A stretch of DNA of 64,000 nt from Welwitschia mirabilis (lineage: Eukaryota). Each line of letters opens with the position of its first letter. Position 1 is the stretch's first letter. Under the pieces are notes generated by a model that was given only the letters and a program-made list of their open reading frames with translations, ran no database searches and was not told where the DNA came from. The stretch covers positions 3,138,870 through 3,202,869 of the forward strand of contig JBOZIK010000001.1 of NCBI GenBank assembly GCA_051453625.1. The letters are read 5' to 3'. Made by a program: the position numbers and the translations under genes. Shown piece after piece: positions 9,119-44,102 of the stretch.

Positions 9119-9265
9119 GTTGGTTAATTTTGTTATACTGATTTTTTATTGCTTATGTAAAATCAACGTCAGATAGGCTGTGTTTCTCTCTATTTGTTGA
9201 TGGATGAATGCATTACGTGTTAAAAACAGAGTGATGACTTTCATAAATTTACTGAGATATTGCAG

Positions 9266-9436
9266 GTGGTTGTGTGTGGGATGTTACTGTTGATTATGGC
9301 CATTGGCAATTTTCTAAATACGGTTGAGACTCTGGTGGCAAAGTCCAGAGTAAAGGCAAAAATGAAGAAAACCAAAAGCAAACTAAATATGGAGCGGTCA
9401 ACATCAGACAGTTCAAGCTTAAGCAAAAGTTCATAG
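9266..9436 (+). CDS. TMEM120: TMEM120/TMPIT-family protein, last coding exon
   Basis: ttgcAG acceptor. Translates VVVCGMLLLIMAIGNFLNTVETLVAKSRVKAKMKKTKSKLNMERSTSDSSSLSKSS*, with TAG at 9434-9436, matching the plant TMEM120 C-terminus (MAxGNFxNTVxTLxAKSRxKAKM). Confidence 0.93.
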   Translation: MVVCGMLLLIMAIGNFLNTVETLVAKSRVKAKMKKTKSKLNMERSTSDSSSLSKSS

Positions 9437-11562: not shown

Positions 11563-14500
11563 CTCTCCCACTTAGGGACAAATTTGGCATGTCTTCAAGA
11601 AAATCTTTTTATGCAACTTGAAAGATGCATTGCCTTTTGAGGCCTCTAAATTAGATAAAGGCCTCTAATTCAGATGCCAGACTCTAATACCTTGCTTGCA
11701 GGTGTTATGTTTATAGTTGTTTAGAATCTTAGTTAGGAAGTCAATAGATTGCCTTTATTTTAACTTTGGCAAGATCAATTCTCCACCATGTCTTGATTGA
11801 AGTGATACTCCACATCTTTGTGCTTCGTATAAATGTGATATGTTGCATTCTTTGCTAATTGTATTGCACTTTGGCTCTCACAACAAACTACATATTTGTT
11901 TTAAGGAAGACCAAAGCATTTCAAGAATGTGTCTTATCCAAATCATCTCCTTAACTCTCTTTGTTAAAGCAATATATTCTACTTTTGTGGCAGAAAATGC
12001 TCCATCACGTAAAAAATGAGACATCCAATGGACTACACCACCTCCAAGAATAGACACATAACCTATTGTTGAGTTCTAGAATATTCATAATCAACAAAAT
12101 CTGCATCTAAAAAATCAACAGTCTTCAAACTTAAACCTCCAAAGCACAGAGAATAATTTTGAGTGCTTCTTTAAGTATTACAATATCATATCGACTACTT
12201 CCCCATCTATTCTTCCAGGGTTATCCCATGTACTTGGAAATAACTCCCATTCCATGGGCAATACTTGTTATAGTACAAATCATGGCATACATGAGACTAT
12301 CTATTGTAGACTGTAAGAAAGATTAGCCATGCCTTTCTTCTCCTAACTAGAAGTAGGGCAATCCCTTTTAGACAACTTAAAATGTTCTGCGAATGTAGTT
12401 ATCTGAACTTAGCCAAAGTTTCTTGTTCTTTTTGTCACGTTGAATCCCCACTCCAAGGATTCGCTTTGCTTGTGCAACATCCTTAGAAGCAAACTTCTTT
12501 GCCATCTACGATTTCAATCTACTAATTTTATGTGGATCATTTTCAACTATCAACATATCATCCACATACAACAAAAGCATTGTGATTTTACTAGTTGTTG
12601 GTCTTTGTAAGTACACGTAGTGATCTTCCTTACACCTTTTGTATTTTTCTTTCATTATGAAAGCATCAAATTTCTTGTACCATTGCTTGAATGCTTGTTT
12701 TAAGCTATATAAGCTTCTTTTCAACTTGCACACAAAGCTTGTTCCATTTTCAAAATCTTTAGGGTGCTCCATGTAAATTCCTTCTTGCTGGTCTCCATGC
12801 AAAAATGCAGTTTTAATTTCCAACTATTCTAGTTGCAAATTCATGCAAGCTATCCGAGCTAAAATGATGTGAATATAAATAGGTTTTAGCTTCCTACTTC
12901 AACATGTAGCTCCACATGTTTTTGAATGCCTTCTTCCCATATGGCAAAGGAACAACCTCCCAAGTATAATTTTGTTCAAGGGATTTCATTTCTTTATTTA
13001 TGGCTTCTAGCCATTTTCTAGCATTAGGACTAGAGACAACTCTTTGGTATGATTTTGGTTTACCTACATTTGGTTACAGAATGTAATCCAAAGATGGACA
13101 ATGTCTAGAGGGAGGCATGCTAGGCCTTGTAGAATGCCTAGCCCAATGATCTAGAGTCTGGAAGTTTTCTAGTTTTTGTTCTAGTTCAAACGCATGTTAA
13201 GGTTCATGCTTTTATTCCACTCTTTCTTCATCCTCAATGGCATTGTTTTAAGAAAAATTCATCTAAAATTCCACCATTTTTTTGCTTGATCTGGAATGTT
13301 AACAAAATAAGGGTGTAAGATCAGAAATTCCATCACTGTAATTCCTTTCTTGTGATTTGTAAACATGACATTTTCATTAACGATCACATCTTGCGATGTA
13401 ATCACCTTCCTTGCCACAAGGTTGCATAGTTTGTAGTCATGGCTATCACCTTTGTAACTAGGAAAAACACATTTTCTAGTTGTTCCCTAGCTTTGATACA
13501 CTTTGTTAATGAACATAAGCCTCATGTCAAATTGTGATAAGATGTGAGTAAGAAACAAAGTTCCCACTCCAACAACATTCTTGTAGTTTTCATCTATTCA
13601 ATAATGCGGATCCTATTTGAAAAGAAAAGCCACTGTGGTGGCCATGTCAATCCAAAAATGTTTGGACATTCCAAACTATGCAAATATTGCTCTAACTCTC
13701 TCTCTAATTGTTCTATTTTGCCTTTTAACAACTCCATTTTGCTACGGATTTCCAAACGCTTTTGTAATGAATGATCCTTGATGCCCTACAAAAGTTTTTC
13801 AAACTTTTTACAATTGTAATCCTTTGCAATATGTATCAATATCTCTTGAATTCTCTAGTCAGTTTCATTCTCTATTCTTGCCTTGAAGTTTTTAAAGATT
13901 TTAAAGGCTTCATCTTTGGATTGCAAATGACATAGCTAGATTTTCTTCGAAAAATCGACAAGAAAAGTGATGAAATACAAAACACCTCCTAACGAGGTAT
14001 GTACAATGGGCTAAACAAATCAAGATGTATTAACTCCAACCCCTGGCCTTTCAAATGATTATTGTTCCTTTTAAAATTAACTCTTCTATATTTACCAACC
14101 ATATAATCAGAACAAAATTCAAAAAAGACACAAACTTTCATAAAAATCCTTTATGAGCAAGTACCTGCAATCCTTCTTCACTTGGGTGTCCTAGAGGTGT
14201 ATGCCAAGTTCTAGCAACTATGTCTTTATTTATAACATATTTCATGCTAATAGGTAGTTGAATGCAAAACCTACATAGTGCCTTCTCTACTACCTTGAGC
14301 TATCACCAAAGCTCCCTTATTAATTTTCCAAGAATTGCTAACAAAAGTGGTGGTGAAACCACTATCACCTTGTTGTCTTGTAGAGACCTACTTTGTAGCT
14401 AAACTTGGAACGTCTCAAATTTGTTAAAGTAAATTTCTAATCATTTTGTTTCCTCAAGATCACTACTCCTTTTCCTTCGATCTCATATCTACGATCATCT

Positions 14501-15534
14501 ACTAACTAGACACATGAACCATTTGTAACAAGTTCATAAGTAGAAAACAAAGTTTTACATGTAAAGACATGAAACATGGCACATGTATCTATAATACATA
14601 CTTTTAGAAAAGACTATTCAGAAATATTGACATCACCTCCCTATGTTAATAAAGTAGTATGAGCTTCTCCCTCTGAAAGTGGGACAAGCCTAGAGGCTTC
14701 ATCCTTCTTTTCATCCTTCTATTTATGCTTTTTCCTAAGCTTTCAACATTCTCTTCTCAAGTGCCTTTTCTTTTATAGTAATAACAGTCAATGTCCCTTC
14801 CCTGGGATATTTCTCTACTCTTGCTATGTTCATGTCCTCCTTTGTTTTAAGAATGTCCTCTGTTAGTTGCAATGGCTACCTTGGTTGTCATTGTTATTAG
14901 TACTCATTATGTTCTTGGTTTTTGCACCTAATAGAGTGGAAATAAGATCATTCAGAATCATATTAGATTTTCTAGTGGAGGTCAGCATGGGTTTACAACA
15001 GATTCCCAACTTAAAGGTGATGAAATCAATGTGGTTTTAATGTGCAATTCCTTTGTCAACTCTATGCATAAATCACCTATTGTTGAGAAGACATGTTGCA
15101 TCTCATGCAGATGACTTATTTTCTTGTTATGTTCTTCATCTTAGGAGTGAATGCCTGATGGTTGGTCATCCCTCTTTTTAAGTTTATACTAAAGTTCATG
15201 GGCTGTGTTTTATCTTTGAATGTGCTTTTAAAATAGCATCGCTTAGGCATGGCCCAATCAAGCACAAGACATTTAAGATTCATTTCCTTTGAATCAACCA
15301 TATGCTTCAACTAGTTAGCATTAGGCATCCTAGATTTAGTCTTACTTGATCTTTCATTTTCAACACAATCTATTTTTGAAACACCGTTGTTTTTAAGATC
15401 TGTTGGTTTGTTAATAATCATGCTATCTAGAAACTAATCACTTATTCGCTCACTTGTCAATGTGTGGGACTATTAACAAACCCTCGCATAGGACATCCTT
15501 GCGCTTCAATCCACAACAATGCTCTGATACCACT

Positions 15535-17813: not shown

Positions 17814-20800
17814 TGTCATGACCCTGTTTTTAGGTTGGACTTATAAGGCACTATAAAGCACCATTTTTTATCCCTAATTAACTAAATTACATTATGTTAT
17901 ATTAGTAACATTACATAATTCGATAAACATTGCAGTGGATTAATTAGGTTGTGACTAAAAGACTTACCTCTCAATTACCCATAGGATTCATGTCAAGTGA
18001 ACTATGTGATGATAGCCCACCTGCCAAATATCATAACCAACCTTAAGGTTAATCAGAAATCTCAATTAGGAGCATAGATAAGAAGTGTGTAAGTTGCGGT
18101 CAAGTGGTTGGTTGCACCGACAACAAAGCAACCATGCCTATGTAATCCTCATCTGGAGGAGTTCAGACCACACGTAGTTCTATCTTGGAGCTCGTTCTAA
18201 TCTCCACCAATAGGCATGAGCGTAAGATAGATCAAAGTGATCCGTATCAGTGGCATGTGGCAATCCTAAGCATGAAAGAGTGCAAGGAATAATGCGATAA
18301 CTTAATATTCAAACCAACATCAATAGATATCGCACACGAATATATATACATATGCATAGTAGCTATGTGTAAAAGTATAGAAGGCATCCAGTCAAGAACT
18401 CTGGAGGTTATAACATCCAATCCTATTAAGGAATTTCAATGCATGAATGATAATAATACATGTATATTAATATAAATCAGATATATGGGTACCGGAGTAT
18501 GTATATATAGTGAGCCATCTGGTCACTTAACCAAAATATCCATTAGTAATCCTCCATCACCAAGCATAAGAGACTCCCTCATATCTCACTATAACATCTT
18601 AGTGGGAGCCAATGGGAGGGAATATATTATAATAAAGTGTCATTATAATAAACTCATGCAAAAATATGATTAACACACACACATGCATATACAAACCTAC
18701 ACATATGTCATTTTGACAGGGTACCTCTTAGCTGTTCCTTTTATAACATATCATAATGAATCTAATAATATGTAAATATTAAATGCCAAAGAGACTAGCC
18801 TATATGCCACTGATTAAGTCTTTAGTCTCAATAGACTTAGATCAATAGAAGTCAAAGGATAAGGGTTGCTAATTAAGTGCCTAACTTTTTTTCAATGAGC
18901 ATTAAAGAATAACTATTATTATATCAATTTATGCATAAGATAACAACTAATTATATAGAATATTTAACTCATATTTATGAACATGTAAGAAAGTATATTC
19001 AAGGATACACACCTGGATAGCATTGAGATTACTAAAAGTAACCATGACCATTGGAGATCGTGCTAAAACCTGCATCATTTTATAACTATACTATGTGTAC
19101 TATAACTATATTAAANNNNNNNNNNNNNNNNNNNNNNNNNNNNNNNNNNNNNNNNNNNNNNNNNNNNNNNNNNNNNNNNNNNNNNNNNNNNNNNNNNNNN
19201 NNNNNNNNNNNNNNNTTCATATCTTACTATAATGTCTTGGTGGGTGATAATGGAAGGGAATATATTATAATAGAGTCTCATTATAGTAAACTCATGCAAA
19301 AATATGATTAACACAAACATATACAGATACACACATACATAGACTCCATTTTGGTAGAGTACCTATTAGCTACTCCTTTTATAACATCTCATAATAAGTT
19401 TAGTAACATATAAATATTAAATGACAATGAGAATAACCTATACGCCACCGATTAAGTTTTTAGTCTTAATAGACTTAAGTTAATGGAAGTCAAAGGATAA
19501 AGGTCACTAATTAAATGCCTAATTATTTCAATACACATCATAAATTAATCATTACTATTATATCATTTTATGCATAAGATAATAAGTAACTACTTAGAAT
19601 ATTTAACTCATATGCATGAACATGAAAATAACATACACATGATAGTACATACTTAAAAAGTGTGAAGCAATACTAGAAATAACCATGTTCATTGGAGGAT
19701 GTGCTTAAACCTGCATCATTTTATAACTATACTATGTGTACTATAACTATATTAAATCATACTAAAAACAACATAAATGTTATTCAATACATCCAACAAT
19801 ATATAACATTCATTATAAATTAATTACTAAGTGTAAGAATGTATTCTGTTAAAATAATTATAATAACATCTTTATCTAAGAAGTTAAACATGAGTATTCA
19901 ATCTTTTCTAAGCGTTTCTTTCATCATGAATCTATTCCTAACATTAACCTATACTCAAGAATACAACACGTTTTCCCTTATGATACATATACATGTAATG
20001 CTATATGTATGAAATAGTGTAATATCAAATAATACAATATAATAAATATAATATAATATAAAATACTACTATGTATGTCATATAATGTAATTTAATATAT
20101 AAGCAATATAAATTATTATGATATATAATATAATATAATATAATATAATATAATAGAGTATAGAATAATATAATACAATAAAATTTAATATAATATTTAA
20201 TTTATGAAAAATATAAATATTATAATATAATATAATACAACATAACGTAATATAATGTTATAATATAACATACTATATTACATATGTTTTAAATGTAGTG
20301 TATTAATATAATATTAATGAATAAAAACATAGCATAAAGAGAAGAGCATATAATAAAATAATGTGTATAGATAAAGAGAGAAGATAGATGTGTAAAGTAT
20401 ATTAAGCAATAATAATGTAGTATAATAAGGAACATATATAGGAAAGGAGAAAATATATACATAATATAGAAAGTATAATAAATATATGAAGTGAACACAC
20501 AAATAATAAGATGAAAGTCAAATATTAGATAAATAATAATAAGTTTGGCTTAATCTCTCTAAATATCTAGTGGTTTACATTTTTGCATTAAGACAACTTC
20601 CTTGAGTTATACGATGTAGTTCATACACAAGAGATGCATATAATAAAATGATATTTGTAGATTCTATAAGATGTTATTATTACCAATGCGAGGTAGGATA
20701 TACCGATAACAATTGCGTTCATTTAGAGATCATCTAAACTTTGATAGCAAACCATCTCCCCTTACCTTTTATTTTTCATAATGAAACCAACGTTTTAAAG

Positions 20801-22929
20801 AATTGTCAAATGTATCTAAATAATACTAAGAATAGAAAGATAATAAGGAGGAAAATGGAGAAAACCTGATCGCCTATCAAGAAACTTAATTCAAGGAATG
20901 CACTCCAAGTGTTGCTCCTTTTCCATGTCATTTTGTGGATGCACCAGAGTCTTTGCAATTTTCTTGCAAAATGAAGAACTATAACTGTGGCCTTTAATAG
21001 CTCAATCACCTTCAAGATGACATCTTCAAGATTTTTGTTATGGTTGCTAGCTATTGCAAAAGCCTGCCATGATGATGAATGACTCCACTTCTCAGATTTT
21101 TCTCGAAATGGGCATTGCACAAAAATTCACTAGTGTATGCCCATACTGACACACATGCTATCTGTAAATTCTACAATGGAAATTTTTATGGAAATGGCAT
21201 CTTCACCGTTCCTTTGCTTGTAGACCATTTCTCGTGTGCCTTCTTGTAGGGTACAAAACAATTGATTCTAATTTCTCTGTTGCCATAAAAACTGGTAAGA
21301 ACTTTGATCTAGCTCATTTTGATTGCATATTCAATGAACTGTATCAGAAACACATGGTTTTCTTAGCTGAAAGGTCGAACAATTTTCTTGAGTATGGCGT
21401 TGTCGAACAGGTCCACACTAGACACCACAAGTGTCTGATTCTCTGTCAAATCCTTCAAATATTTCTTGTCAAACTTGTTTGGAGTGCGTTTATCCACTGG
21501 ACGCCCTCCATCATCTTGTCTTCATCTTCGTCATCCACGTCCCCATCTTTGTTTTCGTGGGTCGTTGAAAATGCAGAGAGATTTCCAAAAGCATGAATGA
21601 TATGCATTTTTTTTTTCCTGGCTTGCACTGAACCACAATGAAATAGACTCTGTGAGGTTAAAAGTCGTAATGTTGTGGGTCAATGTTGTAGATAACAGTG
21701 GTCCAATTACAGAAATAAGCGTCCATTTGTGGGGGAGATACATTTCAGACAAGGCACCCTCCCCCACAACCAAGAGAATCACGTTGAATATATGCCCTAG
21801 CATGCCTCTGCTTCTGCTGTGACTCTGTGATGAGAAACAACAATAAGATTCAACATTTTGGAGTTATCTCGCCATCCCTTACTTTACTCACGGTTAGTTT
21901 GCCTTGATATCATCGATAATTCCTTAGAGTTTAGGTCCCCATGTGCTTGTGCAGAAGCAGTGAGAAGCACGGATGAGACATAGCCGTTGAAGAAACAGGC
22001 TTCGAAAAGGAGCTTGAGAAGCGCTAAAGTGCTTCTAAGATGGGCTTTCAACCTTCACCTTCGCCATTTCTCGGTCATGAGATATTGGTTGACAGAGTGT
22101 TCTTACATTGGCAGTGGGCTCCCCCTCCTTACCATGAAATGCATGCATATAGTCATACAAGAAATAGCAATGTTCAAATGGAGATTGCAAAATGTTTGGC
22201 TCATCAAACACCGCACAGATGGCACACACTTCAAAGTGGTGGGTATTACATTCTCTTCTCCTTAAGAAGTTTCCGCCCTCGGAAACTACTTAAGCTATTT
22301 AATACTTTAGCAAGAGCCATTAGGAAATTGATCAAGCAATGGATCCAAACCTAGCTATGATACCAAAATGTCATGACCCGGTTTTTAGTTTGGGCTTATG
22401 AGGCACTAAAAGTCATCATTTTCCCCCTTATTAACTAAATTACATTATGTTACATTAGTAACATTGCATAATTCGATTAAACATTACAACGGATTAATTA
22501 GGTTGCAACTGAAAGACTTACCTCTCAGTTACCCACAGGATTTATGTCAAGTAAACTATGTGATGATAGTCCACTGACTAATATCACAACCAACCTTAAT
22601 CAGAAATCTCAATTAGGAGCACAGATAAGAAGTGTGTAACTTGCGGTTGAGTGGTTNNNNNNNNNNAACCACACCTATGTAATCGTCTTTTGAAGGAGTT
22701 CAGACCACACAGTTTTATCTTGGACCTCGTTCTAATCTCCACCAATACGCATGAGTGTAAGATAAATCAAAATGATCCATATCAGTGGCATCTGGCAATC
22801 CCAGGTATGAAAAAATGCAAGAAATAATGTGACAATTTAATATTCAAACCAACATCAATAGATATTGCACACGAATATATATACATATGCATAGTAACTA
22901 TGTGTAAAAGCATAGGAGACAACCAGTCA
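17814..22929 (-). mobile_element. Non-autonomous LTR retroelement carrying a captured class III peroxidase-like sequence, copy 1
   Basis: The 5' LTR starts at 22369 on the plus strand (tgtcatgaccc...) and runs into the gap at 22930. PBS TGGTATCATAGC is at 22354-22365. The internal region spans 20754-22368. PPT AAAAGGTAAGGGGAGA is at about 20755-20770. LTR sequence at 17814-20753 begins with the same tgtcatgaccc end and contains a 100-N gap. No gag/pol motifs were found internally. Confidence 0.85.
21245..22035 (-). pseudogene. Class III (secretory) peroxidase-like pseudogene inside the LTR element, copy 1
   Basis: Minus strand reads ALLKLLFEACFFNGYVSSVLL (cf. [20 protein letters not shown]), GIIDDIKA and RDSLGCGGG. 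One frame reads VDKRTPNKFDKKYLKDLTENQTLVVSSVDLFDNAILKKIVRPFS*ENHVFLIQFIEYAIKMS*IKVLTSFYGNREIRINCFV (cf. [30 protein letters not shown]...MIKMSQLSVLTGxxGEIRxNCS). Stops and frameshifts are present. Confidence 0.85.
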
Positions 22930-23029
22930 NNNNNNNNNNNNNNNNNNNNNNNNNNNNNNNNNNNNNNNNNNNNNNNNNNNNNNNNNNNNNNNNNNNNNNN
23001 NNNNNNNNNNNNNNNNNNNNNNNNNNNNN

Positions 23030-23300
23030 TCAGCATTGCAAAGTAGATTAATCATTATTAAAAAAGCTAAAGGAGCCAAAACCATATCCAGATAGGAAAA
23101 GAGGTATAGATTCTAAAGTGTGAAGGTCTTCTTCTTAATTGCAAGGGAAAAAAGCTAAAGAAAAACTTGATAAAAAGGAGAAAAGAGACAAGGCCTTGAA
23201 ATTTCAACATATGTATAGAAAACATTGATGAGGTGTTAAGTTTTTAAGATATTACTTGGCTTTTTCTAAATCCCCTCCTTCATACTTTGCCTATTGAAGG
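23030..23300. repeat. ~270-bp diverged direct repeat, copy A (copy B about 24305-24575)
   Basis: Colinear blocks CAGCATTnnAAAGTAGATTAATCA, ATTCTAAAnTGnGAAGGTCTT, AAGGCCTT, TATAGAAAACATT and CCTCCTTCAnACTT occur in both copies. Confidence 0.75.
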
Positions 23301-24304: not shown

Positions 24305-24575
24305 TCAGCATTTAAAAGTAGATTAATCACTATCAATGAAGCTAAAGCAGCTAAAATCATGCCTAAAGAGGTTAAAAAAGTATATATTCTAAAATGGGAA
24401 GGTCTTTTTCTTAGCTTACAAGGGTAAAAAACTACAAATAAACTTGAGAAGAATAAGAAAAGAAATAAGGCCTTCAAGTTTTAGCTTATTTATAGAAAAC
24501 ATTAGTGATGGGGTTAAGTTTTCAAAACAACACTGGCTTTTTCATAAGAAACCTCCTTCACACTTGTCCTTTTGA
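24305..24575. repeat. ~270-bp diverged direct repeat, copy B
   Basis: Matches 23030-23300. Confidence 0.75.
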
Positions 24576-26029
24576 AAAAAAACAATAATAAAAGAATTCT
24601 CTTGTTAATTAAAGAAAAAGAATGACTTTAAGTAAGCATTTAAAACCTTAACATATTTTTAAAGTAACTAATCTCACTTAGAAAATAATCATCTTTCAAA
24701 ATTAATAAAACATTCTTGTGTAGGAACAAATTATGTTAAATTCAATTTTTCTTAACTGTGAGTTTGAGGACGAGACATAGGACTCATTTAATCTTAGCTA
24801 GAAATAGGTAGTATTCACATTTAAAATTTATGAAAAATTAAGCAAGATTACTTTTGGAAGTTATACTCCACCCCCTTCCTAAGATTTGCAACTCTCATGG
24901 TAAATGATTAGTTTAGAAAGCTAATAAGAAAATATCTCAATAAATGAATATTACTATAAAAAACCTAAACAAAATACTTTATGGTTAAAAGTGATAATGT
25001 AGATGGTAGGGGTGGTATAGAAAATAGATGAATTTTCTAAATACCCATAAGTTATGTGTATGAGAATGCATGAAACCAATTAGAAATATAATTATACATT
25101 CATCAACTCTTTTAATGTTAACCAAATCATCTTTCAAGACATCAATTTTGAATTATTTAGTAAAAATGAGGAATCTTCATACTGATCTAGAGCGTGATAG
25201 AATAATTAGGTCATTTCCTACTTACATATGCCCTTTGGAACTATTATAGTAATGCCTTCATAGCATAAAAGTTCATCAAAGTTTTAGGGTCTAGATTTTA
25301 ATAGTGAATTAGATAAGAACAACACAACACACTATAGTATACAATTCTAAGGATGAGATGAGAAAATTTACTACATAAAATAAAGAGTAGTTTTACTAGA
25401 GTATAAAGCATATAGTATAAGATTTTGCATCATGATAATCTTATACCTAATCGTTCTTCTCTTCTACTTATTTTCTCTCTCTCTCTCTTCACCCCTTAAA
25501 ATTAGAATAAAAATTCCATTTATTTTTTCTTAGATTGAGTATAATTTCATAAAGTAGGTTATTGTGAAAACTTCTACTGCTTTAACATAAAATTATTTCA
25601 TGTAGTAATGGCTATGAAGAAGGAAAATAATAAAGGGAAAATAAGGTTGGGAAAACAATAACATATAGTAACTAATTTTGTTATGATTCAAGAACATGAA
25701 AAAATTGAACATGAAAGGTGTGGTAAAAATTCATAATAACATGCTTCATAATTCCAATACATTAAAAAGATTAAAAAATGACATTATTTCTACTCACCAA
25801 GCTAACATAAGAAAGTGATTACAAGGTAATTCCTTTGTTTATTTTTTAAAATTTTTTAACCCTTTAAGAATAATTAAAACATAGTAAAAAAATACTTTTT
25901 GAAATCTAGAAAGTATGCATAAGAACTTATTTATTTATGGGCTAAGTAGTATATGGCATAATCATAGTTTATATTATCCAATGCTATTGGATTAAAGGTA
26001 AAAGTAATTAGGTTGGAGTTAGGAGGTTT

Positions 26030-26624: not shown

Positions 26625-28446
26625 TGTTGACAAAATACAAATTTTGATGATTTCACTTCTCAAATGTAATGTGTTTAGTATGTAAATAGGGTGTTAAAAA
26701 TATTTTTTAAGTTAACAAGATAGTTTATAAGATTCACACAAAAGACTCAAGGCCATAGATTATTCCATTTAGAATTCATAAAGCTTAGACATGTTTGACT
26801 ATAGACATATGTGGTGTAAAAGACATCTATGAGAAAGATGTCTATAAGATGGAAGATATCTATACTAAAACTAAATTAAAAATAGGAGAAAGATATCTAT
26901 AGGATAAAAGATGTCCATACTAAAACTTAACGTGAAACTAATGAAATAAGACTATGATATAAAAGACATCTATACTAAACTGAAGTAGGTGATAAAAAAC
27001 AATCTATGTGAACATGATGATAGTGATGATCTATTTATTTTCTAAGGATCTAAGTGGATTATGCATGATAAATTATTAATATCAAAAGGTTATAGAAATA
27101 GTAGTTTAAAGATTTTTCAATTCTTAACAAATTTACTAAAAACATCTCTCATGTCGAATACATTTGCGTAAAAGATGTCTATCAACATTAAAGATATTTT
27201 CTTGAAAGACATCTATGAGATTAAATATGTCTATTTTAAATTTGGTATAAAATAAATATAGCCATTAAATGATGGAAATTAGCCATTTATAATCATTGAA
27301 GAATAGTCAAACTAATTCAAATGGTCATCTTCCTAGGTAAATGGACTATATTGCTTTAAAAGGATAAAAAGCACAAAGAAACATGATTGAAGAACTTTTT
27401 AGGAAAAAGCATTTTTGAAACTACATAAGATGTAATCTTTTAAAATTGAATAAAGGATACTATCACTAAAAAACATCCTGAATTTCTATGTTCATCCACT
27501 AATTCATCTCTGATATTTGAATCCTGAAAGTAACTTCATCAAAGAAGAACTAAAACAACTACACTTGACATATCATTTTAGTCTTTTTTTATTTCATTCT
27601 AGTTTTGGCATTTTTTTTGTTGAAATATTTTATTTGTTAAATATTTTATTTATAATTCAAAATCATTTTATCTATCTCTCTTTTTAGGATCCCTTTCTTA
27701 AGAATTCCAAAGTCTAAGACAATCATTACATGGATGTCCTTCTTGAGATTGGCCAAGTTCTTAAGAGCATTTTTGAATATTAATTTGATGTAATTGTTGA
27801 GGAGAAGAGAGTTCTATCTTAAGAGGAGCATTTCATTTGATTGTAAGATTGGTGATACTCCAAAATGATTATTTTTATAGGTTAAATATATTTAGAGGTA
27901 TGAAGAAAAGCTACTTTCTACATGTTGACATATCTAAGTTGGGGAACCACGTAAATTAGTAAGATTTCCTTTTATACTTTTTATTAGTTCATTAGTTAAA
28001 TTTTATTTGATGGAACTCATTCATACTTCCCCTCTAAGTTTTATGATCTTTGAATAATATCAGAGTAAGTACTCACAAAAAGAAGTAATACCCTGAACAA
28101 TGAAAAGGATGCCATCTATCAGAGCTCTTATTTTTGATGGATCAAACTATGCCTATTAGAAGATAAGGATGTGGTTATACTTATACCCTTTCAAATTTTA
28201 GGTTGAAATAACATTGAAGATGGATACACAGAGCTAACAAAAACCTTCATAGATGTTGTAGAAAACACCCTTACATATGTCAAGTTTAGGTGGAAATGGA
28301 AAGACCAAGACAAAATAGACTTTACATATGATTCAAAGATAAAGAATGATCTCTATTTAGTCCTTACTATGAAAGAGTTTAACCAAATAGTTAGATGCAA
28401 AACTATCAAAGAGATATGGAATGTCTTAAAAGAGATGTACCTAATC

Positions 28447-28610
28447 ATCATACAAAACCTTGACTGATGCACTAGAACTAACAACATGGGTGTGCAGTCC
28501 TGTCACATAGAACCTTGACTGATGTACTGGAATCAATAACATGGGTCATGGGTATGTGGTCCCTTGGGACAGGTGTGGGAAAACCAACAACGTGAGTGTG
28601 TAGTCCTAGG
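28447..28610. repeat. Degenerate tandem repeat (~55-bp unit AACCTTGACTGATGnACTnGAAnnAAnAACATGGGT) at the start of an unclassified ~1.3-kb insert in gag
   Basis: Two clear units near 28457 and 28511, plus a partial unit near 28582. Confidence 0.6.
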
Positions 28611-29772
28611 AAAAGCCTAGTGTGACATCGGCCTTCACACCACACCGCTAGGTATGGGTTGTGAATTATGTGGTGGAGAGGCTAGGTAGAAATCAACTAT
28701 AGGATTGAGGTAGAACTAGCCAAGTAACGAATCAAGACAAATAGCTTTATGAGTTATAACTAGACTATAAGAAATCTTGCTAGCCATAGACAAATGTTAT
28801 AATTGATGCCTCCCTTCTGAATCTGTTCTTGCTGATCCAACAACTAATATTCTATTACAGTGTGCATGTAGTAGGTAATTAAATAATAGAATCCAACAAC
28901 TACCTTATCCCCGTTATGTACAATGCCATCTCACAAATATGGCAACAAACTTGTACATAAGCTTCATAGGATAGTGTGTTTGAAAAGGATTTACATATAA
29001 CAATCTTGCACTTTCTAGGCTAGAAAATGTAGCCCTCCCTATTGCTCCAAGAATTCTGCACCATTCTGCAATTCCTTTGGACTATAAAAACTCTAGTCAT
29101 AATGCTCCTATAACACTTATGCACACATTACTACAGGAAGGATAATAATAGTTATATATGTGGTGTGGGATCATCTCATGTCTGTTAGATAACTGATCGT
29201 ATGAACTTTATCCACTGTAATGTCTCCATGTTCTAGGGCCAACCAAATATCCATACCACATATCTATGTGAAAGGTGTTGGATAAATATGCATGCTACCT
29301 GTACATAAGGAAGATGAATTGTTAAGTAATTAAAATTCTTGATTTGGATTGATGAAATGTAATATCATAGAATACAAGTTAAATAAATATTCTTTATGGT
29401 TTGACATTGTCTCAATGTTTACAATCATTGTAAATAAAATGCTTGAAAGCTTTATATTATTAGGTTGTTTAAATACCAATGATAATAATATTTTGATACT
29501 CTTTAGTTTCTCTAAATTTTTGCATTTCAAATAATGAAATGGGCTTTTTATTACAAAATGTAAACTTTTAAAAGAAACTTTTACAATGGCATAAATACGA
29601 GAAGGATTCACTTTTATGTGCTATCATGATTTGAAAATTTGGTCTCAGTTAAAATGATTACAAAGATAAAAAAAAACAATATAGATAAATCAACTTTTCA
29701 CTACAAAGTTTTAAGTTTGTTAACTATTCTTTAACAATAATTTTAGAAAAGATCCAAAATCAGTAACTAATT

Positions 29773-32184
29773 TGTAGGAATTTAGACCCCATCAAGTGTA
29801 GTAAAGGACTAAAACTAAGAAGAATCTAGGGAGCAATTTTGGTATTCAATGGAAACAACTCATTCAATTTTATTACTAAGAAGGGATTTAAATATCCTAA
29901 TAGTACAATGAAAAATAGACATGTTGAATAGTAGGAGAGAAAAATTAGGAGGTGGTTTTAACTGCCATTTAAAAAAGAAATATGAGAGTTAATTACCCAA
30001 ATAAAATCCAACAAATCCTTCCTTGATGACAAATATAAGAATTAGACTGTTATCATATTCAAAGTGCTAGAAATGCCTTTAGCATAACAATTCATATAAA
30101 ATTTATCACATAAGTATGGATTGACCACGACAATGTGGACTAACCACAAAAATGTGAATTAAGCATGACAATATGGACTAATCATAAAAATGTGGACTAA
30201 CCATGACATTATAAACTAACCATGATAATGTGTACTAACTACAATAATACGGACTAATCATAATAAAGAACAAATTCAAGCAAATTTTATCTTAAAAAAT
30301 ATCAAAAAAAGTATCTCAGACCACTTCTCACAATATCATCTTTATATGAAATTGCAATATTTATTGGTTGTGACAAGCACACAATCTAGCCTTTACTAAA
30401 ATTTCAAGTACTTAGCAAATGAGGGCGGGGGGAGGGGGAGGAACTAAAAGGAGAATAAATCCCATTTACTTTAACTTTTTTACCTCTATTCATCTCTCAA
30501 CATACAAAAAAAGGTATCTTTCTTTATTTTGTGTATTTTGCAAGTAATAACAAAGGCAAGTAAACTTGCTCAAAAGCTAATGTAGGGATAGAAAGAACAT
30601 GTCTACTAAATTATAATAGGAGGATGTGACAAAATATTTTTTAGATAGTAAAATAATACAACACATGGTTCCTGAAGCCCTTAAAGTTCTATCATGCATA
30701 GAGCTCCATTGGTTAAGACTTAAAGAAAACATGTTACTTAATCTTATTTTAAAAAAATTTTAAATTCACAAACAGAGGCCTAAAATTACTAGAAAGAGGA
30801 AGTGTAAAAATCTAGTGAACATCATGCTTACATATACTAATTCTATTAAACTTATACATAAACTTAATAAATCTAAATTATTCCCTTCTATCTACATCAT
30901 TGTGCCATTGAGCTTGGAGTACTGCATGGTGAAAATTGTTAATAAGAAAGAAAGATATAGGTCCAAAATCTAAAATACCCAAGAAATTTAGAAATATAAT
31001 AGCACCAAACAAATTCAGATAAGCAACATGGCTAATGATTTTGCTGACCTTGCTGGGCATGAACTCCATTCTACTCCTTGAAGAAAACACACCAGAGTTT
31101 TATTCTACAACTTCAAATTTCATTTCTGTCATGAAAAAAGGCCAACAACATACCTATATCTCTCCATTAAAATATTTGTCCAAAATGAAAATTTTCTTTG
31201 AAAATAATCTTTAATCATTCAATATCAAAAAACCTTGCATGGTGAGGGAAATAAAAAATGAATTTGATTCATGAAATTCCAATTTAAGCTAGAGTCTTTA
31301 ATTGATAATCTAAGATAATAACCCCTACAACTAGCATCAATTCCCCAACTAGGAAAACACATGATCAAATTTTTACAAAGGAATCATAAGGAAGTCCTAA
31401 TCTAGATAAAGATGCGAATGCTGCTCATTCCTGCTTGCAGAATAAGTCTACCAAAATGTTCCTTTTAGAGTGTAAAAAAATCTATAAAAATATCAACTAC
31501 AAGTTTTTTTATAAAAGTGTTTGCAACATGGATAGTCTTCTGACCTCCTTGGAAACTAGTATGGAGAGCTTATTGTTCTTCAAGTAGAACTGGAATTGGA
31601 CCTTTGATCTCAGAGTTTTTCTTAACAATATGAGCTTCGAAGCTTAGAAGTAATAAAGGTCTATAGAAATGCACCACACATTCTCAAATGCTAATTTCTT
31701 AAAATGGTTGCATTCTCTACATCTTGAAAGTAGCAATAGTAGTGAGAACCTATTGGATCTAAAGCAAAAAACTTACATCTCTTGCTATTTTCTTTGGATT
31801 GCTACTTTCTTGCTCTTTTCTTTGGATTGCTACTTTCTTTCATTGAATCCAAAGCATGAATAAGCACTACCATAGAGAAGGAATTTATAGGATTTGAAGG
31901 AAGTGTGATTAAGCATAAAGTCTTTCTACTAGCTTTGATACCAATTTTAGGGATTTAGATCCTATTAAGCATAGTGGAGACCAAGAACTAGAAATAACCC
32001 AGCGAGTAATTTTGATATTTAATGGAAATAACTCACTTAATTTTACTAATAATGAGGATTTAAATACCCTGACAGTACAACAAAAAAGGACATGTTGGAT
32101 AGCAGAAGAGAGAAATCAAGAGGTAGCTTTAACAATCATTTAAAAAATGAATTTGAGAGTGGACTATATAAATAAAATCCAATA
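29773..32184 (-). mobile_element. Small non-autonomous LTR element (~240-bp LTRs) nested in the SIRE-like gag
   Basis: Direct repeats at 29773-30013 and 31946-32184 (TGTAGGAATTTAGAnCC...ATAAAATCCAAnA). PBS TGGTATCAAAGC is at 31932-31943 and a PPT-like CAAGGAAGGA at about 30016-30025. No gag/pol was recognised in the ~1.9-kb interior, and the TSD is not clean. Confidence 0.8.
30112..30265. repeat. ~19-bp minisatellite (TGGACTAACCATGACAATG-like), about 8 units
   Basis: Directly visible degenerate tandem units next to the PPT of the nested element. Confidence 0.8.
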
Positions 32185-35100
32185 ATAAATCAGTTGAAAT
32201 CCTTGAAGATGAATGATGGAAAGAGTGCAAGAATAATTCACAAGGGTTAACAACATTATGAATGTCATTCATGGGATTGATGAAGATCATTCAAAGGCTA
32301 AGATGATTTAGAAAGTAATTAGATCTTCGACTCCAAAATATAGAATAAAAGCAATAATAATGAAATAATTAACATATTTTAATACTATAAAGATTAAAGA
32401 ACTACAAAGTGCTTTTATAGCTTACAAGATGAAATTCATTTAAGATGGTGTAGTAAAAGAGAAGTTAATTGTTTTTAAGATAAGTAAAATATCAAAACAA
32501 GTATCTAAAGGGAAAGCAAAAGAAGCTTCAAATGCAAATGATTTAGAAGATGATGTAGATGAAGAGCTTGCTTTAATCATAAGGCATTTTAAGATACTTC
32601 TCTCATAAAAGAACAAAATAAATGAGGACTATAACAAGTTATCAGGATTTCAAACTAAATATAGGTCCAATGGTACATCTTTTTTTAGTTCTAGTTCTTC
32701 TTCTAAGAATGATATCTCTAGATTAGAATGTTGGATTTATGAAGGATAAGAAGATTTATCTCTAAAATTTTCTAGCTCTAATTGTTTATATAAAAAAGAA
32801 TGAATAAAAAAAGAAAGAAGAGAAAAAGAAAGCCCAAGGAAAATAAATCCTTCTTCACATATTAAGATTAAGATGAAGATGTCACAAAAGTAGATACATT
32901 AGATAGGGAGAGAGTTTACCTATCTTACATGACCATCATCCATACCTAAAGTGATAAAAAAGAGAAAAGAAATGATCAAGAATTAGAAAGTAAAGATGAA
33001 ATAGGTATGAAACTTTAAGAAAGATATGATTTAATTTCTATAGAAATTATTAAGTTACAAAAAAGTTTATTCTAAGATTAAGTTACTTCATAATCATGAA
33101 TTATATTATGAGTAAAAAAGGGTTATAATAATAGATTTGCAAATGAAAACTTAGCACTTAATACTAATATTATTAAACTAACATGTGAGTTGGAGAATAT
33201 TAGATAGAAACTTATAGATGCAAAGATAATTCATAAGAAATTCATCTAATGAAAGGAGACATTAAAGATCATGCTTAGATAATGTAGAAGTACCAGTGAA
33301 AAAAGTAGCCTAGGATATCCTAGGATACAATGAGGCTTTCACAAGTACTTCAACCTCACTTTTTAATAGGAAGAACTATAAGCCAATGCATGAGCATTTA
33401 ACTTTCATAAAGAACATTACTTGTTATTACTATTATAAATGTGATCATTATTAATTAAATTATCCATACATGTTTGATAGAAGATACTATGCTAACAATG
33501 CTAAGAAGCCCAAGAGAATGGTATAATAGTTTATGTAGGAAAAACCAAAGTAGAAGCAAATTCCTAAATCAAGGTCAGTTCTCATAGTACAAATTGCCTT
33601 ATAGATCGTAAAGAGACATGCTTAGTATGATGAAAGTAAATGCTCTAAATACATAATAGATGATAAAACTAGTTTTACTTCCTTGATTGAGTAAGACAAA
33701 GGTATGGTCACATTTGATGATAACATAAAAGCATCAATCAGAGGTATTGGAACCATTAGTGGAGGTAGTTTACTTAAGGTAAAAGATGTGTTTTATATTG
33801 AAGGTTTACAACATAATTTAATTAGTATAAGTTATCTATGTGATGTAAATGTTTCTATGATTTTTATCAAAATTATCATGTTATAAAGGAATGTAAGTCA
33901 ACTAAAGTTCTATTTTCTAGGCTTAGAAAATCAAAGATTCATATCACCACATTGTAAGATACTTCTAAAAAAAGTATGAAGTGATTATTAAGTGCTATAA
34001 GCAATGAAAATATGTGGTAAAATAAGCTTGGACATATAACAAGAATCTACTAAAGACCCTCTATTCAAAGGACATGTTAAGATGACTTTTCAAATTGCAA
34101 AATTTTGATGATGAGATTAGTGAAACTTGTCAAAAGGAAAAGAAAATAAGGGTAAGGTTTGTAAGGAAAGTTATATCTCCATAAAACATCCTTTGGATTT
34201 TCTACATGTTAATAGTATTAGACTGTCTCCTATTGAAAGTCTTATTAAGAAAAGATATCTATTCTCGATGATTTTTCCCATATACATGGGTGGCCTTCCT
34301 TACACACAAGAATGGAACCTTTGACATCTTTCTTGTGTTGTGTATTAGATTATAGAACTTAAAAAATTATAGGATTAAAACAATAAGAAATGAAATTGGT
34401 ACAAAATTCAAGAATGCAAGGATCAAGAAATTTTATGAGTATTTTAACATATTTCATTAATTATTAGCTCTAAGAACACCATAAAAATGGAAAAGTTGAA
34501 AAGAAAAACTAGATACTAAATGAGATGGTAAGGACAATGATGCACAATCAACAAATTCCTTACCATTTTTGGGTAAAAGCCATTAACATAGCTTGTTATG
34601 TCTCAAATAGAGTTTTGATAAGAGATTTTATGTTTAAAACTCCATATGAGCTATGGTGTGGTAAGAAATTTTTAGTAAGTTACTTTCATGATTTTGGTTT
34701 AAAATGTTTTATCTTAAATGAAAAATTTTTCTTAGAAAATTTGATTCTAAGGTTGATGAAGCTATTTTTCTAAGATAGTAAATGGCTAGTAAAGCTTCTT
34801 AAGTGTTCAACAAGAGAATGTAAGTGATAGAGAAAACTATAAATGTTAAAATTGATGATACTAACTTAACATCTATTTAGGTATAGGATGATTATGTGCC
34901 TATATGACTTAAAAAAACTAATAATAATCCACTTATGCAACTAGATAGTGATGAGAAGAAAGAAGATAAACCTAAAAAATAAACCTACTTACAAATGATC
35001 CTATTGAAAAACAATTACTTAACTAGCAACATAATTGGTAGTCCATATGATAATGTAAAAATAAGAAGCATACTAAGGATTTTTATGGATTCACAAGTTA

Positions 35101-38100
35101 CATCTCTTAAGTAAAACCCAAGAACTTTAATAAGGTATCAAAAGTTGATTATTCTATTTGACATAAGGCTACTTCTATCTAGTATTGGTTAGTGCATTTT
35201 CAACTTTAATATCTTCATGCTAATTCTAATTAAGATGATCAACATTAGATGATAGCTATTTAAGAAGAGTTAAACTAGTTTGAAATATATGATGTTTGGA
35301 AACTTACTCCAAGGCCATTAGGTAGATGAGTAATAGAAATAAAATGGGTGTTTATAAAGATGATAGAAGAAAATGGAAATGCCATGATAAACAAAGTAAT
35401 ATTGGTAATAAAAGAATACAACCAATAAAAAGGAATTAACTTTAAAGAGACCTTTCCATGGGTAGTATATGTAAAATCAATCAAGATGCTTCTAGCTTTT
35501 GCATGTGTCAAGAGATTTAAGCTCTACTAGTGGATGTCAAGAGTTCCTTCTTAAATAGAGTACTATAAGTAGAGGTATATGTTGAAAAACCTAAGGTTTT
35601 TTACTAATTATCATAGCTTAGATCATGTTTACAAGTTGAAAAAGGATTACTATGGATTTAAGCCGGCTCTTAGAGCTTAGTATGAAATTCTTTAAGATCA
35701 TCTAATAGAGAATGGATTTAAGGGAGGTACATTTGATATCACCTTATTTATAAAAATGAATAGTAAAAACTTTAATACTATAAAAAGTTACATAGATTAC
35801 ATTATATTTAGTACTACCAATGAATTTTTATGTAAGAAGTTTGTCAAGATCATGCAAGATGAACTTGAAATAAATTTCATTAAAGAAATGAGAAACTTCT
35901 TTAGTCTACAAGTTATGCAATATAGATGAGATATATCCATTTTTCATACTAAGAATATTAAGAGTTTATTATCCAAATACATGTTGCAAGATTATAAGGC
36001 AAAAGAGATATCTATAAACCAAGGCATAAAATTAGATAAAGATGAACATGGTAAGAAGATTGGTCAAAATCTATCTAGAGGTAAGATTCATAGTCCAATT
36101 TATCTTACTGCTAATAGACCAAATATTTTATTGAGTGTAAAAATTTATTCTTATGATCAAAGTAATCATAAAGAATAAAATATTAGGACTATTAAAAGAA
36201 TATTTTATTATTTAGAAGGTGCTACTAACTAAAACCTTTAGTACTTGAAGGAATCCTACCTTAATCTAGCTAGATATTATAAAGCAGATTGGGTAGGTTG
36301 TAAGATTGATAGGAGAAGCACAAGTGAAGGTTACTACTTCTTTGGATAATATTTGGTCTCATGCAGTAGTAAGAAGTAGAATTAAACTACTCTCCTGACT
36401 ATTGAATCCGAGTACATTACTGTTAAAAGTTGTTATGTAGAAGTGCATTAAATAATTCAAGTCTTGATTAATTTTAAACTCAAAATGGAGAACATTCTAA
36501 TCTATTTTAACAACAAAAATGCAATGAACTATCTAAGAATCCTATTCAACATTTTAGAATAAAGCACATTTATATTATACATCATTTTGTTTGAGAACAC
36601 GTATAAAATAGGAATATTACATTAGAATAAATAAAGATAGAAGATTAACTAGATGATGTATTTACTAAGTCATTGAGTGTAAATAAGTTCTTCAAGCTTT
36701 GAAACATCATGGGAATTGGGTCTTGACTAATTAAGTAAACTAGCATGTAATTTTTTTCTTATCTCAACTTAACACATTAGTTATATTATATTTTGTGAGT
36801 TTAGATAATAGTAGTAGGTATTTAAAGTTTATCTTGTGTTAGCATTTTAATTTTAAAGAATCTTTTTGGTTAATAGAATTAGGTTATACTTCTTTTAATA
36901 TTATCTTTTTAGGTTAAAAATTTCTAATAATGAGATTAGTAGTAGAAAATTTATAAGGTTTTAGGAATGCAAGGTCAATTTATTTTATATCTATAGATGT
37001 ATTTAATTCATAGACATCAATTATAAAGACATCTTTTATGATGTAGATGCCTTTAGCTATCAACAGTTAGCTAAGAAAAACAAGCATTTCTTTAATAGGT
37101 AGACATCTTATTTTTTCATTTTAAACATCTTTGAGGTAGTAGAAATATTTCTTGTATTTAAGTAATATTATAAATTTTAATAGGTAAACATATTTCTAAG
37201 TTGTAAACATCTATTATTTCCATTTTAAGTTTAAACATCTTTTAAGGCATAGATTTCTTTAACATTATGATTTTGAAAATAAAAATCCACATCAAAACTA
37301 GGTTTGACCCCTTTTGAGATGAGAAAGAGATTAGCAACTCTTATCTTTACTCCTCCACATAGCAAGTATCCTTATTAGTGTGCCCAAGAGCTCTCTTTAA
37401 CTTATTTTTCTCTAGTTAGATGTCTTTATTTTAGTAGAACTTCATAATAAGCAAGAATAGATGGACATCTTTCATAGGTGAATATTTTTTAGTATTTCTA
37501 TTATTTTTACTTAGAGCTGTAGTTTATTCTTATTATATTCCTCAAGAGTGATGAGAAGAAAGGCCTCTAGCTCAACCAAAGATAAGGGAACTACTTAAGA
37601 ATCAAAGTACCTTAGTATCATCCTTATTTCTATCATGAATTAGTAGAGAGAATATTTAATTAATGGATTATAAATTCTATTATCATAGATTAAATATTAG
37701 ATTTGCAAAAAAATAAAAAGGATTATATTCTAGTCTAATTCTCTTATCTTAGAGTGAAAATGATAGTCTAATTAGTGCAAAGCCTTTTAGATTAAGTGAT
37801 GCATGAGTTCTATGTGAACATTCATGAAACTAATGACTCTATAGGAAACATTTAGAAATAATTCAAAGGTACTTCTTTATTTTATCTTAGTATCATTAAT
37901 AGTCTACTTAGCATAGATGATTATAATCTCCCTCACTTATTCATGCATATATTTCAAAAAATATTTAAATGTAAAATAGCTAGAGTAACACATACAACTT
38001 AAGTACTATTATATTTGACAATTTAAAAATGGGTTTTTATGAAAATGTTGAGTGAAAATACATCGTTTCTAATGCCTCTATTTTAATCTTGATTACTTTT

Positions 38101-41900: not shown

Positions 41901-42742
41901 CCAGAAGTGCTTGATTCTCTGTCAAATCCTTGAAATACTTCTAGTCAAACTTGTTGGAGTGCGTTTATCCACCGGACGCTCTCCATCATCTTCATCTGCG
42001 TCATCGTCATCCACGTCCTCGTCTTCGTTTTCGTGGGCCGTTGAAAATGCAGAGAGATTTCCACAAGGACGAATGATACGCCTTCTTTTTTCCCCTTTTT
42101 TTCGCTGGCTTGAACTGAACCGCGATGAAATGGACTCTCTGAGGTTAAAAGCCGTAACGTTGTGGCTCAAGGTTGCAGACAACAGTAATCCAATTACAGA
42201 AATAAGCTTTCGTTTTTTGGGGGAGAGACGTTTCAGAGAAAGGACCCCCCACCACAACCCAGAGAATCACGTTGAATATATGCCCCAGCACACTTCTGCT
42301 TCCGCTGTGATCCTGTCATGAGAAATAAGAAGATTCAATATTTTGGAGTCGCCTCCCCATCCCTTGCTTTACTCACGGTTAATTTGCCTTGATATCATCG
42401 ATAATTCCTTGGAGTTTAGTCCCCCACGCGCTTGTGCAGAAGCAGTGAGAAGCACGAATGAGACATAGCCGTTGAAGAAACAGGCTTCGTAAAGGAGCTT
42501 GAGAGGCGCTGGAGCGCTTCTAAGATGGGCCTTCAACCTTCCCCTTCGCCATTTCTGGGTCTTGAGATATTTTTTAACAGAGTGTTCTTACAACATTGGC
42601 AGTGGGCTCCCCCTCCTCACCATGAAATGCATGCATATAGTCACCTAAGAAATAGCGTAGTGTTTCAATGGACATTGCAATATGTTTGGGTCATCACACA
42701 CCACACCGATGGCACACACTTCGAACTGGTGGGATATTACAC
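38934..42742 (-). mobile_element. Peroxidase-carrying non-autonomous LTR element, copy 2 (3' LTR plus internal region; PBS and 5' LTR absent)
   Basis: The LTR spans 38934-41208 (2275 bp, TGT...ACA) and is colinear with 17814-20753 and 22369-22929. PPT GTAGGGGGGAGAT is at about 41209-41221. The internal region aligns with 20754-22250 until similarity stops near 42742. Confidence 0.85.
41720..42520 (-). pseudogene. Class III peroxidase-like pseudogene inside the LTR element, copy 2
   Basis: Minus strand, across several frames, reads APAPLKLLYEACFFNGYVSFVLL, GIIDDIKAN*, RDSLGCGGGSF...TVVCNLEP, PVDKRTP / NKFD*KYFKDLTENQALLVSDLDLFNN and QFIEYAIKMSQIRVLTSFYGNGEIRINCSVP*. Confidence 0.85.
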
Positions 42743-43669: not shown

Positions 43670-43835
43670 TTATTGTGTTTGCCATTGTTCTGGTGTGCAT
43701 GCCTTCTTTATTGAAAGAGCGTGAATATCTTTTAGCTCTTTAGAGAGTGCTGAATTCACCATGCGATGACGCTCCAAGAGTCTCTTTCCTTCAAACTTGG
43801 ACGATGCTATCTCAATCTCAAAGCTTGCTCCGCAT
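43670..43835 (-). CDS. BOLA2: BolA2 (cytosolic BolA-family Fe-S/glutaredoxin partner), exon 3
   Basis: ttttAG acceptor at 43837-43836. Translates (G)CGASFEIEIASSKFEGKRLLERHRMVNSALSKELKDIHALSIKKACTPEQWQTQ*, the conserved plant BolA2 core. Confidence 0.95.
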
Positions 43836-44102
43836 CTAAAATTTTTAAAAGAGCACATCACATTAGATATTAGTGTTGAAAGTAATAGTAGGCTTGGAAT
43901 ATTTTTGACTTTCACAATCTCATTCTTCCTAATATATTTTGTCTCAAAATTGAAAAAAATGGAGTATGCTGTGAATCCTTATATCAGTGAAGATGCCATA
44001 TATTAGAGAATATAACAAAACAGTGAGAAAACAATAACAGCAATGCATATAGTTGTCGAAACAACTGGATACAATAACCAAAATCAAAGTCCAGAATGGT
44101 AC

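Follow-up and report, generated by a model that had tools for sequence, protein, structure and literature searches.

Two decayed copies of a probable non-autonomous LTR retrotransposon with an intron-free class III peroxidase pseudogene as interior in Welwitschia mirabilis

Introduction

Maize Bs1, the classic gene-capturing long terminal repeat (LTR) retrotransposon, keeps gag and part of pol together with fragments of several genes. Large retrotransposon derivatives (LARDs) represent another type of non-autonomous LTR element, characterized by long LTRs and by conserved non-coding interiors that are not recognisably gene-derived. Here we describe two loci, referred to as copy 1 and copy 2, in a 64,000-nucleotide stretch of Welwitschia mirabilis DNA (assembly GCA_051453625.1, contig JBOZIK010000001.1, positions 3,138,870 to 3,202,869; hereafter, the window). 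Both appear to be copies of a non-autonomous LTR retrotransposon whose interior derives largely from a class III peroxidase. Similarly to Bs1, the element has host gene sequence in its interior and would depend on other elements for its movement; unlike Bs1, it has no detectable gag/pol, and its passenger is one near full-length coding sequence. With LARDs it shares long LTRs (here about 2.3-2.9 kb), a non-coding interior and presumed mobilisation in trans, but its interior is mostly peroxidase coding sequence.

According to the accessible text of PMC3726574, the genes captured by LTR retrotransposons number 672 in rice and 1,343 in sorghum, and pseudogenes under neutral selection make up a higher percentage of those in rice. 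The W. mirabilis element resembles these captures in having a host gene between LTRs, and its passenger, like such captures in rice, is a pseudogene. Since host-gene capture by LTR retrotransposons is documented there in hundreds to thousands of cases per genome, the element opens no new question; it is a further example of a well-known process and not a new kind of element. What it does provide is a clean, annotatable case of a whole coding sequence in place of gag-pol. It should also be of use for repeat libraries, as annotation would otherwise take the interior for a peroxidase pseudogene or a gene fragment and so inflate the peroxidase gene count. The word "peroxidase" is absent from the accessible main text of PMC3726574, as distinct from its supplements. 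Moreover, no paper among those listed from open-access full text, a body of literature that does not cover subscription journals and supplements, describes a peroxidase-carrying LTR element.

Results

We estimate a probability of about three in four that a non-autonomous LTR retrotransposon, now old and decayed, gave rise to both loci, with a near full-length, intron-free class III peroxidase coding sequence (CDS), in sense orientation, in place of its gag-pol. An earlier reading of the nucleotide sequence alone (hereafter, the original prediction) had proposed the order LTR, primer-binding site (PBS), interior, polypurine tract and LTR on the minus strand, and this order is confirmed for copy 1 (Table 1). 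In BLAST, the preserved part of the 5' LTR (22369-22929) matches 17814-18394 with 84.7% identity over 583 bp; counting only the 550 ungapped sites, 89.1% are identical, corresponding to a Kimura two-parameter (K2P) distance of 0.120. Positions 22657-22666 of this LTR part are a 10-N gap, while the outer portion of the LTR is swallowed by a 100-N gap (22930-23029). A spacer of just 3 nt separates the LTR terminus, ...GTCATGACA, from the PBS, TGGTATCATAGC.

Eleven of the 12 PBS nucleotides match the tRNA-Met motif TGGTATCAGAGC, as in Ty1/copia elements with a tRNA-Met PBS; the same tRNA is used by some gypsy lineages. This motif is complementary to tRNA-Met according to the accessible text of a Jatropha copia study (PMC3852365) and represents the PBS of the Noble family according to that of a grapevine copia study (PMC2576258). 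At the opposite end of the interior, the purine tract (20777-20755) abuts the other LTR. Both this tract and its counterpart in copy 2 terminate in GGGGAGA and in this respect are similar to the Jatropha copia tracts AGGGGGAGA found in the accessible part of PMC3852365. The locus differs from Ty1/copia in being devoid of gag-pol, so that its superfamily is not assignable from the element.

The LTR-terminal CA is present at all three junctions (3/3). The other end of the LTR, placed next to the purine tract, begins with TG in copy 1 and with TT in copy 2, there being no second LTR start for comparison. Because no second start is visible, the inner LTR boundary had to be deduced, and the LTR lengths (2941 and 2276 bp) are those set by the purine tract, without confirmation from a second LTR.

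The second copy, predicted at 38934-42742, is real, although its end lies at 42741 and it is not complete: the last 118 bp of the interior, the PBS and any 5' LTR are missing. The repeat evidence comes from BLAST of the region against the window and from BLAST of the whole window against itself (8 pairs of at least 150 bp). In these comparisons copy 1 positions 17814-19115 correspond to copy 2 positions 38934-40226 (82.7% identity), 19217-20961 to 39690-41412 (84.8%) and 21054-22250 to 41529-42741 (87.2%). The self-BLAST did not reveal any further related LTR within the window.

The repeat terminus falls on the identical nucleotide at three junctions (17814, 22369 and 38934), and the sequences beyond it are three unrelated ones. 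Read on the minus strand, with a slash at each boundary, the outer end of copy 1 is ...GGGTCATGACA/CAGAGTGG, the outer end of copy 2 is ...AAGTCATGACA/ATAGTAAA and the inner end of the copy 1 5' LTR is ...GGGTCATGACA/TTT/TGGTATCATAGCTAGG. No shared sequence was detected by window self-BLAST to the left of 17814 or 38934, nor to the right of 42741. The original prediction had named shared flanks as an observation that would speak against it; the flanks turned out to be unrelated. A shared terminus combined with unrelated flanks favours transposition over segmental duplication. The composite unit occurs in 2 copies with unrelated flanks at the exact LTR terminus, one of the copies being truncated and neither having visible target-site duplications.

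Some features of the repeat are worth recording in their own right. In addition to the 100-N gap at 19116-19215, the 3' LTR of copy 1 contains a diverged internal duplication and a (TAATA)n array at 20020-20277 (~51 units); a similar array occupies the equivalent LTR place in copy 2 (40482-40761, ~56 units). Relative to copy 1, copy 2 has a ~60-bp tandem duplication in the 3' part of its interior (41355-41475), and in BLAST copy 1 20911-21029 also matches copy 2 41419-41534.

The interior is where the peroxidase homology resides. For each copy, three sense frames were scanned against Pfam with stops treated as X, and PF00141 was the sole family at E<=1. It was detected in one frame per copy, at E=5.6e-4 (20.2 bits) in copy 1 and E=8.8e-4 (19.6 bits) in copy 2. 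As the original prediction had it, the interior has no recognisable gag/pol: neither these nor any other retroelement family matched any of the six frame translations at E<=1 (0/6, three per copy). Open reading frames (ORFs) of the LTRs likewise had no Pfam match at E<=0.001 (0/7).

A phmmer search of 1.84 billion representative proteins with the C-terminal stretch of copy 1 (107 residues, 2 stops as X) returned 55 proteins at E<=1e-3. The best true relative among them is P0002 (E=3.7e-11, 45% identity). The top match, P0001, was rejected as off-target, being a repetitive, cadherin-like-looking protein of 6660 aa with 20 matched stretches. When 15 of the matches were tested, 14 contained PF00141 above the cut-off; P0024, without PF00141, was set aside. 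Of four clusters whose source names were looked up, two are called "peroxidase 12" and "peroxidase 12-like". A frameshift-aware alignment to P0002 comprises 37 identities among 81 aligned residues, and a local alignment of this type failed to bridge the middle of the pseudogene.

Conversely, nine peroxidases were compared with the window by tblastn. Eight of them match 21500-21231 (E 6.5e-16 to 6.2e-7) and also the corresponding site in copy 2, the remaining one (P0046) matching neither copy. Four of the nine match the N-terminal motif region (22051-21899), at E 0.008-0.16, which is a weak signal by itself. No other window sequence was matched by any of the nine at E<0.4, and therefore no resident peroxidase gene is present nearby.

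We also constructed a profile from 25 peroxidases, all of them picked via the C-terminal query and 15 of them redundant in that they come from the P0002 cluster. The profile matches the N- and C-terminal regions of both copies (Table 1), with the C-terminal match of copy 2 divided between two frames. In the controls the score did not exceed 0.5 bits over 300 shuffled frames, and the best antisense frame scored -3.5. For all five peroxidases tested, the best local alignment place was the N-terminal motif LLKLLFEACFFNGYVSSVLL at 22021-21962, with z-scores of 3.6, 5.0, 4.3, 3.9 and 1.4 against 60 shuffles each. The claim that peroxidase motifs occur in the correct order and in the sense of the element holds, with the C-terminal part supported by phmmer and by 74.2 profile bits, and the N-terminal part more weakly, by 12.9 bits, a score nonetheless above those of all 300 shuffled frames.

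The order and spacing of the N-terminal motif and of the C-terminal block TPxxFDxxY...IKMS...VLTG..GEIRxNC are those of class III peroxidase 12(-like) proteins. The upper limit of the pseudo-CDS (22094) is set by a Cys whose spacing agrees with that of the first conserved Cys, a limit that has no statistical support. The middle of the pseudo-CDS has kept its length, its sequence being unrecognisable, and the whole is in sense orientation relative to the element. The rest of the interior, ~250 bp at the 5' side and ~480 bp at the 3' side, has no recognisable peroxidase origin.

Introns were assessed from the spacing of the profile-supported blocks. In the canonical class III peroxidase gene plan, intron 2 is located between introns 1 and 3. 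The accessible text of bioRxiv 10.1101/2024.01.25.577222 describes this plan as four exons and three introns, with intron 1 just past the distal His, in the interval from the second to the third conserved Cys, and intron 3 directly before the proximal His. Given these canonical positions, all three introns would be expected between the profile-supported blocks. In copy 1, the 182 profile positions from 66 to 248 correspond to 546 nt and are spanned by 530 nt of DNA; in copy 2, the 188 positions from 64 to 252 correspond to 564 nt and are spanned by 557 nt. Since the DNA spacing is approximately that of a cDNA, the three conserved introns are absent from both copies. Moreover, EACFFNGY runs uninterrupted across the intron-1 site, in agreement with the original prediction that this site is contiguous. 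The absence of introns fits RNA-mediated capture but does not prove it, as the parent may have been naturally intronless.

The distal His and Arg of peroxidases are catalytic residues. In both copies the distal His is lost, F-E-A-C being found for F-H-D-C; K replaces the catalytic Arg, and Y replaces the third conserved Cys. The copies also have in common a -1 frame change between the N-terminal motif and GIIDDIKAN as well as the stops in AN*P*VK. The peroxidase region contains 28 stops in one frame. Unlike class III peroxidases of the 12(-like) type, then, these sequences have many stops and frameshifts, replaced catalytic residues and third Cys, and no introns. Because the lesions are common to both copies, the passenger must have been dead already in their shared ancestor. 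The peroxidase-derived region is a pseudogene and not a gene, and nothing suggests a present function.

Between the two LTR ends of copy 1 the K2P distance is 0.120 over 550 sites, smaller than the 0.258 and 0.288 that separate these ends from copy 2. That they are mutually closest fits a single insertion with later divergence of its LTRs. The distances also fit a history, as read from sequence divergence, in which copy 2 would represent a lineage that had already separated by the time of the copy 1 insertion. With a plant neutral rate, taken from another species, of about 1.3e-8 per site per year, the copy 1 insertion would date back roughly 4-5 million years, which should be read as an order of magnitude only. 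Within the 3' LTR of copy 1, the duplicated segment (18579-19115 and 19217-19756) flanks the 100-N gap with 81.4% identity (K2P 0.218). The pair may represent an old LTR-internal duplication or a more complex arrangement within the gap.

Table 1. Positions, in window coordinates, of the element features and of the peroxidase profile matches
Feature	Position	Strand	Remarks
Copy 1 5' LTR	22369-22929	minus	inner (3') 561 bp only; terminus ...GTCATGACA; matches 17814-18394
Copy 1 PBS TGGTATCATAGC	22354-22365	minus	11/12 match to tRNA-Met PBS motif TGGTATCAGAGC
Copy 1 interior	20778-22353	minus	1576 bp; no gag/pol signal
Copy 1 peroxidase-derived intron-free pseudo-CDS	21240-22094	minus	profile-supported blocks 22030-21920 (N-terminal, distal-His region) and 21500-21240 (C-terminal)
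Copy 1 polypurine tract GAAAAATAAAAGGTAAGGGGAGA	20755-20777	minus	immediately 5' of TGGTTTGC; resembles copia tracts tabulated in PMC3852365 (accessible part)
Copy 1 3' LTR	17814-20754	minus	2941 bp including 100-N gap; inner edge deduced from purine tract followed by TG
Copy 2 interior	41233-42741	minus	5'-truncated; peroxidase blocks 42521-42423, 41964-41824 and 41819-41712
Copy 2 polypurine tract GAAAAAGAAAAGTAGGGGGGAGA	41210-41232	minus	immediately 5' of TTGTTTGC
Copy 2 3' LTR	38934-41209	minus	2276 bp; 10-N gap at 40365-40374
Profile match, copy 1	22030-21920		profile positions 66-102; 12.9 bits
Profile match, copy 1	21500-21240		profile positions 248-332; 74.2 bits
Profile match, copy 2	42521-42423		profile positions 64-96; 3.4 bits
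Profile match, copy 2	41964-41824		profile positions 252-298; 26.7 bits
Profile match, copy 2	41819-41712		profile positions 300-333; 21.7 bits

Discussion

Taken as far as it is testable, the interpretation put forward in the original prediction is supported. The capture route, the mobilisation in trans and the size of the family are what we infer from the observed structure. Gag-pol would have been replaced by a peroxidase mRNA, or by a gene in sense orientation that was spliced afterwards as part of the element transcript, most likely through a template switch while co-packaged RNAs were being reverse-transcribed. With LTR, PBS and purine tract retained, the resulting RNA could have been copied in trans by the proteins of an autonomous element, giving rise to at least two insertions in this region. 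By the time the two copies parted, the passenger was already non-functional.

A number of observations weigh against this interpretation. The LTR is duplicated within one element over 561 bp only, its inner boundary is a deduced one, and copy 2 begins with TT, not TG, at that boundary. Target-site duplications are not visible: the outer end of the copy 1 5' LTR lies inside a gap, and copy 2 is truncated at its 5' side. The PBS motif alone is not enriched, as 3 matches with <=2 mismatches occur in the window vs 3.62 expected; the PBS evidence is one of position, not of motif count, and the remaining 2 matches in the window are likewise placed at the 5' ends of retroelements. Divergence along the element is uneven (K2P 0.094-0.26, with 0.157 in the interior and 0.094 in the inner LTR), and the left segment of the LTR-internal duplication shows a smaller distance to copy 2 (0.135) than to the right segment (0.218). 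On the side of the passenger, the check by PF00141 fell short, with both scores (20.2 and 19.6 bits) under the gathering cut-off of 27, while homology proved significant by phmmer. The N-terminal alignment score exceeded all 60 shuffles for only three of the five peroxidases; the best shuffle won in the case of P0002 (57 vs 59) and P0028 (44 vs 53). About 145 profile positions in the middle are undetectable. Intron loss is frequent in the family, with at least one intron lost in 27 of 49 moss genes according to the accessible text of bioRxiv 10.1101/2024.01.25.577222, and for this reason intron absence is no proof of an RNA intermediate at capture. Finally, no other family member was seen, as two word-index protein searches yielded no relatives: the C-terminal stretch against longer proteins gave 32 candidates, and the longest interior ORF (antisense, 21168-21593) gave 82, with none of either set scored.

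Could the two copies have arisen without a mobile family? One ancestral peroxidase-carrying element might have been duplicated locally as part of a larger segment, with copy 2 subsequently truncated. The copies do share one orientation at a distance of 21 kb, there is no third copy in the window and no relative in the protein collections, and copy 2, having neither PBS nor 5' LTR, is not demonstrably a complete insertion. Nonetheless, we regard this scenario as unlikely. Homology of copy 2 stops exactly at the LTR terminus ...GTCATGACA, just as in copy 1, and a chance breakpoint at that place would be rare; furthermore, the LTR distances (0.120 within copy 1 vs 0.258 and 0.288 to copy 2) indicate that copy 2 split off earlier. 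Alternatively, a resident, naturally intron-free peroxidase pseudogene could have become framed by LTRs through nearby insertions, deletions or recombination between elements, never having transposed inside the unit. Intron loss is frequent among class III peroxidase genes (bioRxiv 10.1101/2024.01.25.577222, accessible text), and the region is full of retroelement debris, with gaps that conceal part of the structure. Such framing would nevertheless have to account for a PBS 3 nt from one LTR, a purine tract abutting the other and a pseudogene between them in the same sense, and it would have to do so twice, since the layout of LTR, purine tract and pseudogene recurs in copy 2 next to a different outer flank. 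Together with the lack of any other peroxidase-like sequence in the window at tblastn E<0.4, this makes a resident pseudogene very improbable.

The intron-free, near full-length state of the peroxidase sequence could also be explained by a processed pseudogene, produced by a long interspersed nuclear element (LINE), that landed in an already non-coding LTR element of the LARD type. The peroxidase sequence would then reflect a secondary insertion instead of template switching, and the ~730 bp of non-peroxidase interior could be remains of the host element. A retrocopy of this type is not indicated, because there is no A-run of at least 6 and no A-rich 20-mer downstream of the pseudo-CDS in either copy, although such marks are partly erodible at 13-16% divergence. 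Flanking direct repeats were not noticed either, in data that were not searched for them systematically. On balance, we find a LINE-mediated origin quite unlikely. A more far-reaching scenario would have a sizeable lineage-specific family spread the peroxidase sequence, with LTR-driven sense or antisense transcripts feeding small RNAs that damp peroxidase-12-like genes. A negative-regulatory role for captured genes has been suggested in rice and sorghum (accessible text of PMC3726574). Cross-silencing of peroxidase-12-like genes is nevertheless unlikely, and the scenario as a whole is highly improbable.

Other features of the window

The window resembles plant nuclear DNA; it is AT-rich, with 20-40% G+C in 2-kb bins, and includes six runs of N. 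It contains no ORF of more than 160 aa outside gaps, no tRNA genes and no Rfam family at the gathering score. Several other retroelements are recognisable. A degenerate copia element occupies 12509-15532 on the minus strand, with RVT_2 at 12509-12823 (E=1.1e-21) and a retroviral SH3-like domain at 13262-13486; an exact TGGTATCAGAGC at 15521-15532, on the same strand, is probably its PBS. On the plus strand, a second degenerate copia element extends over 28207-35926 and includes gag (28207-28464) and Pol_BBD/RVT_2 fragments, with pol pieces at 33695-35926. A second small LTR-type element (29766-32182, minus strand) seems to be nested in it. This small element is bounded by direct repeats (29766-30011 and 31940-32182) that are 76.9% identical; PBS-like TGGTATCAAAGC at 31932-31943 abuts the right repeat, and AAGGAAGGA precedes the other. 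ORFs inside 29766-32182 have no retroelement Pfam match.

Another direct repeat (23030-23298 and 24305-24576, 77.7% over 273 bp) has its start right at the border of the gap interrupting the 5' LTR of copy 1 and is unrelated to the peroxidase element. Remains of host genes are also seen. An ORF fragment at 9224-9433 on the plus strand corresponds to the C-terminal end of TMEM120A/B (E=1.4e-6, just under the Pfam cut-off) and is probably a host-gene exon. The truncated end of copy 2 is 930 bp away from a BOLA2-type exon (43673-43978, minus strand; BolA E=3.1e-16), whose best protein matches, at <=81% identity, come from conifers, lycophytes and many angiosperms alike.

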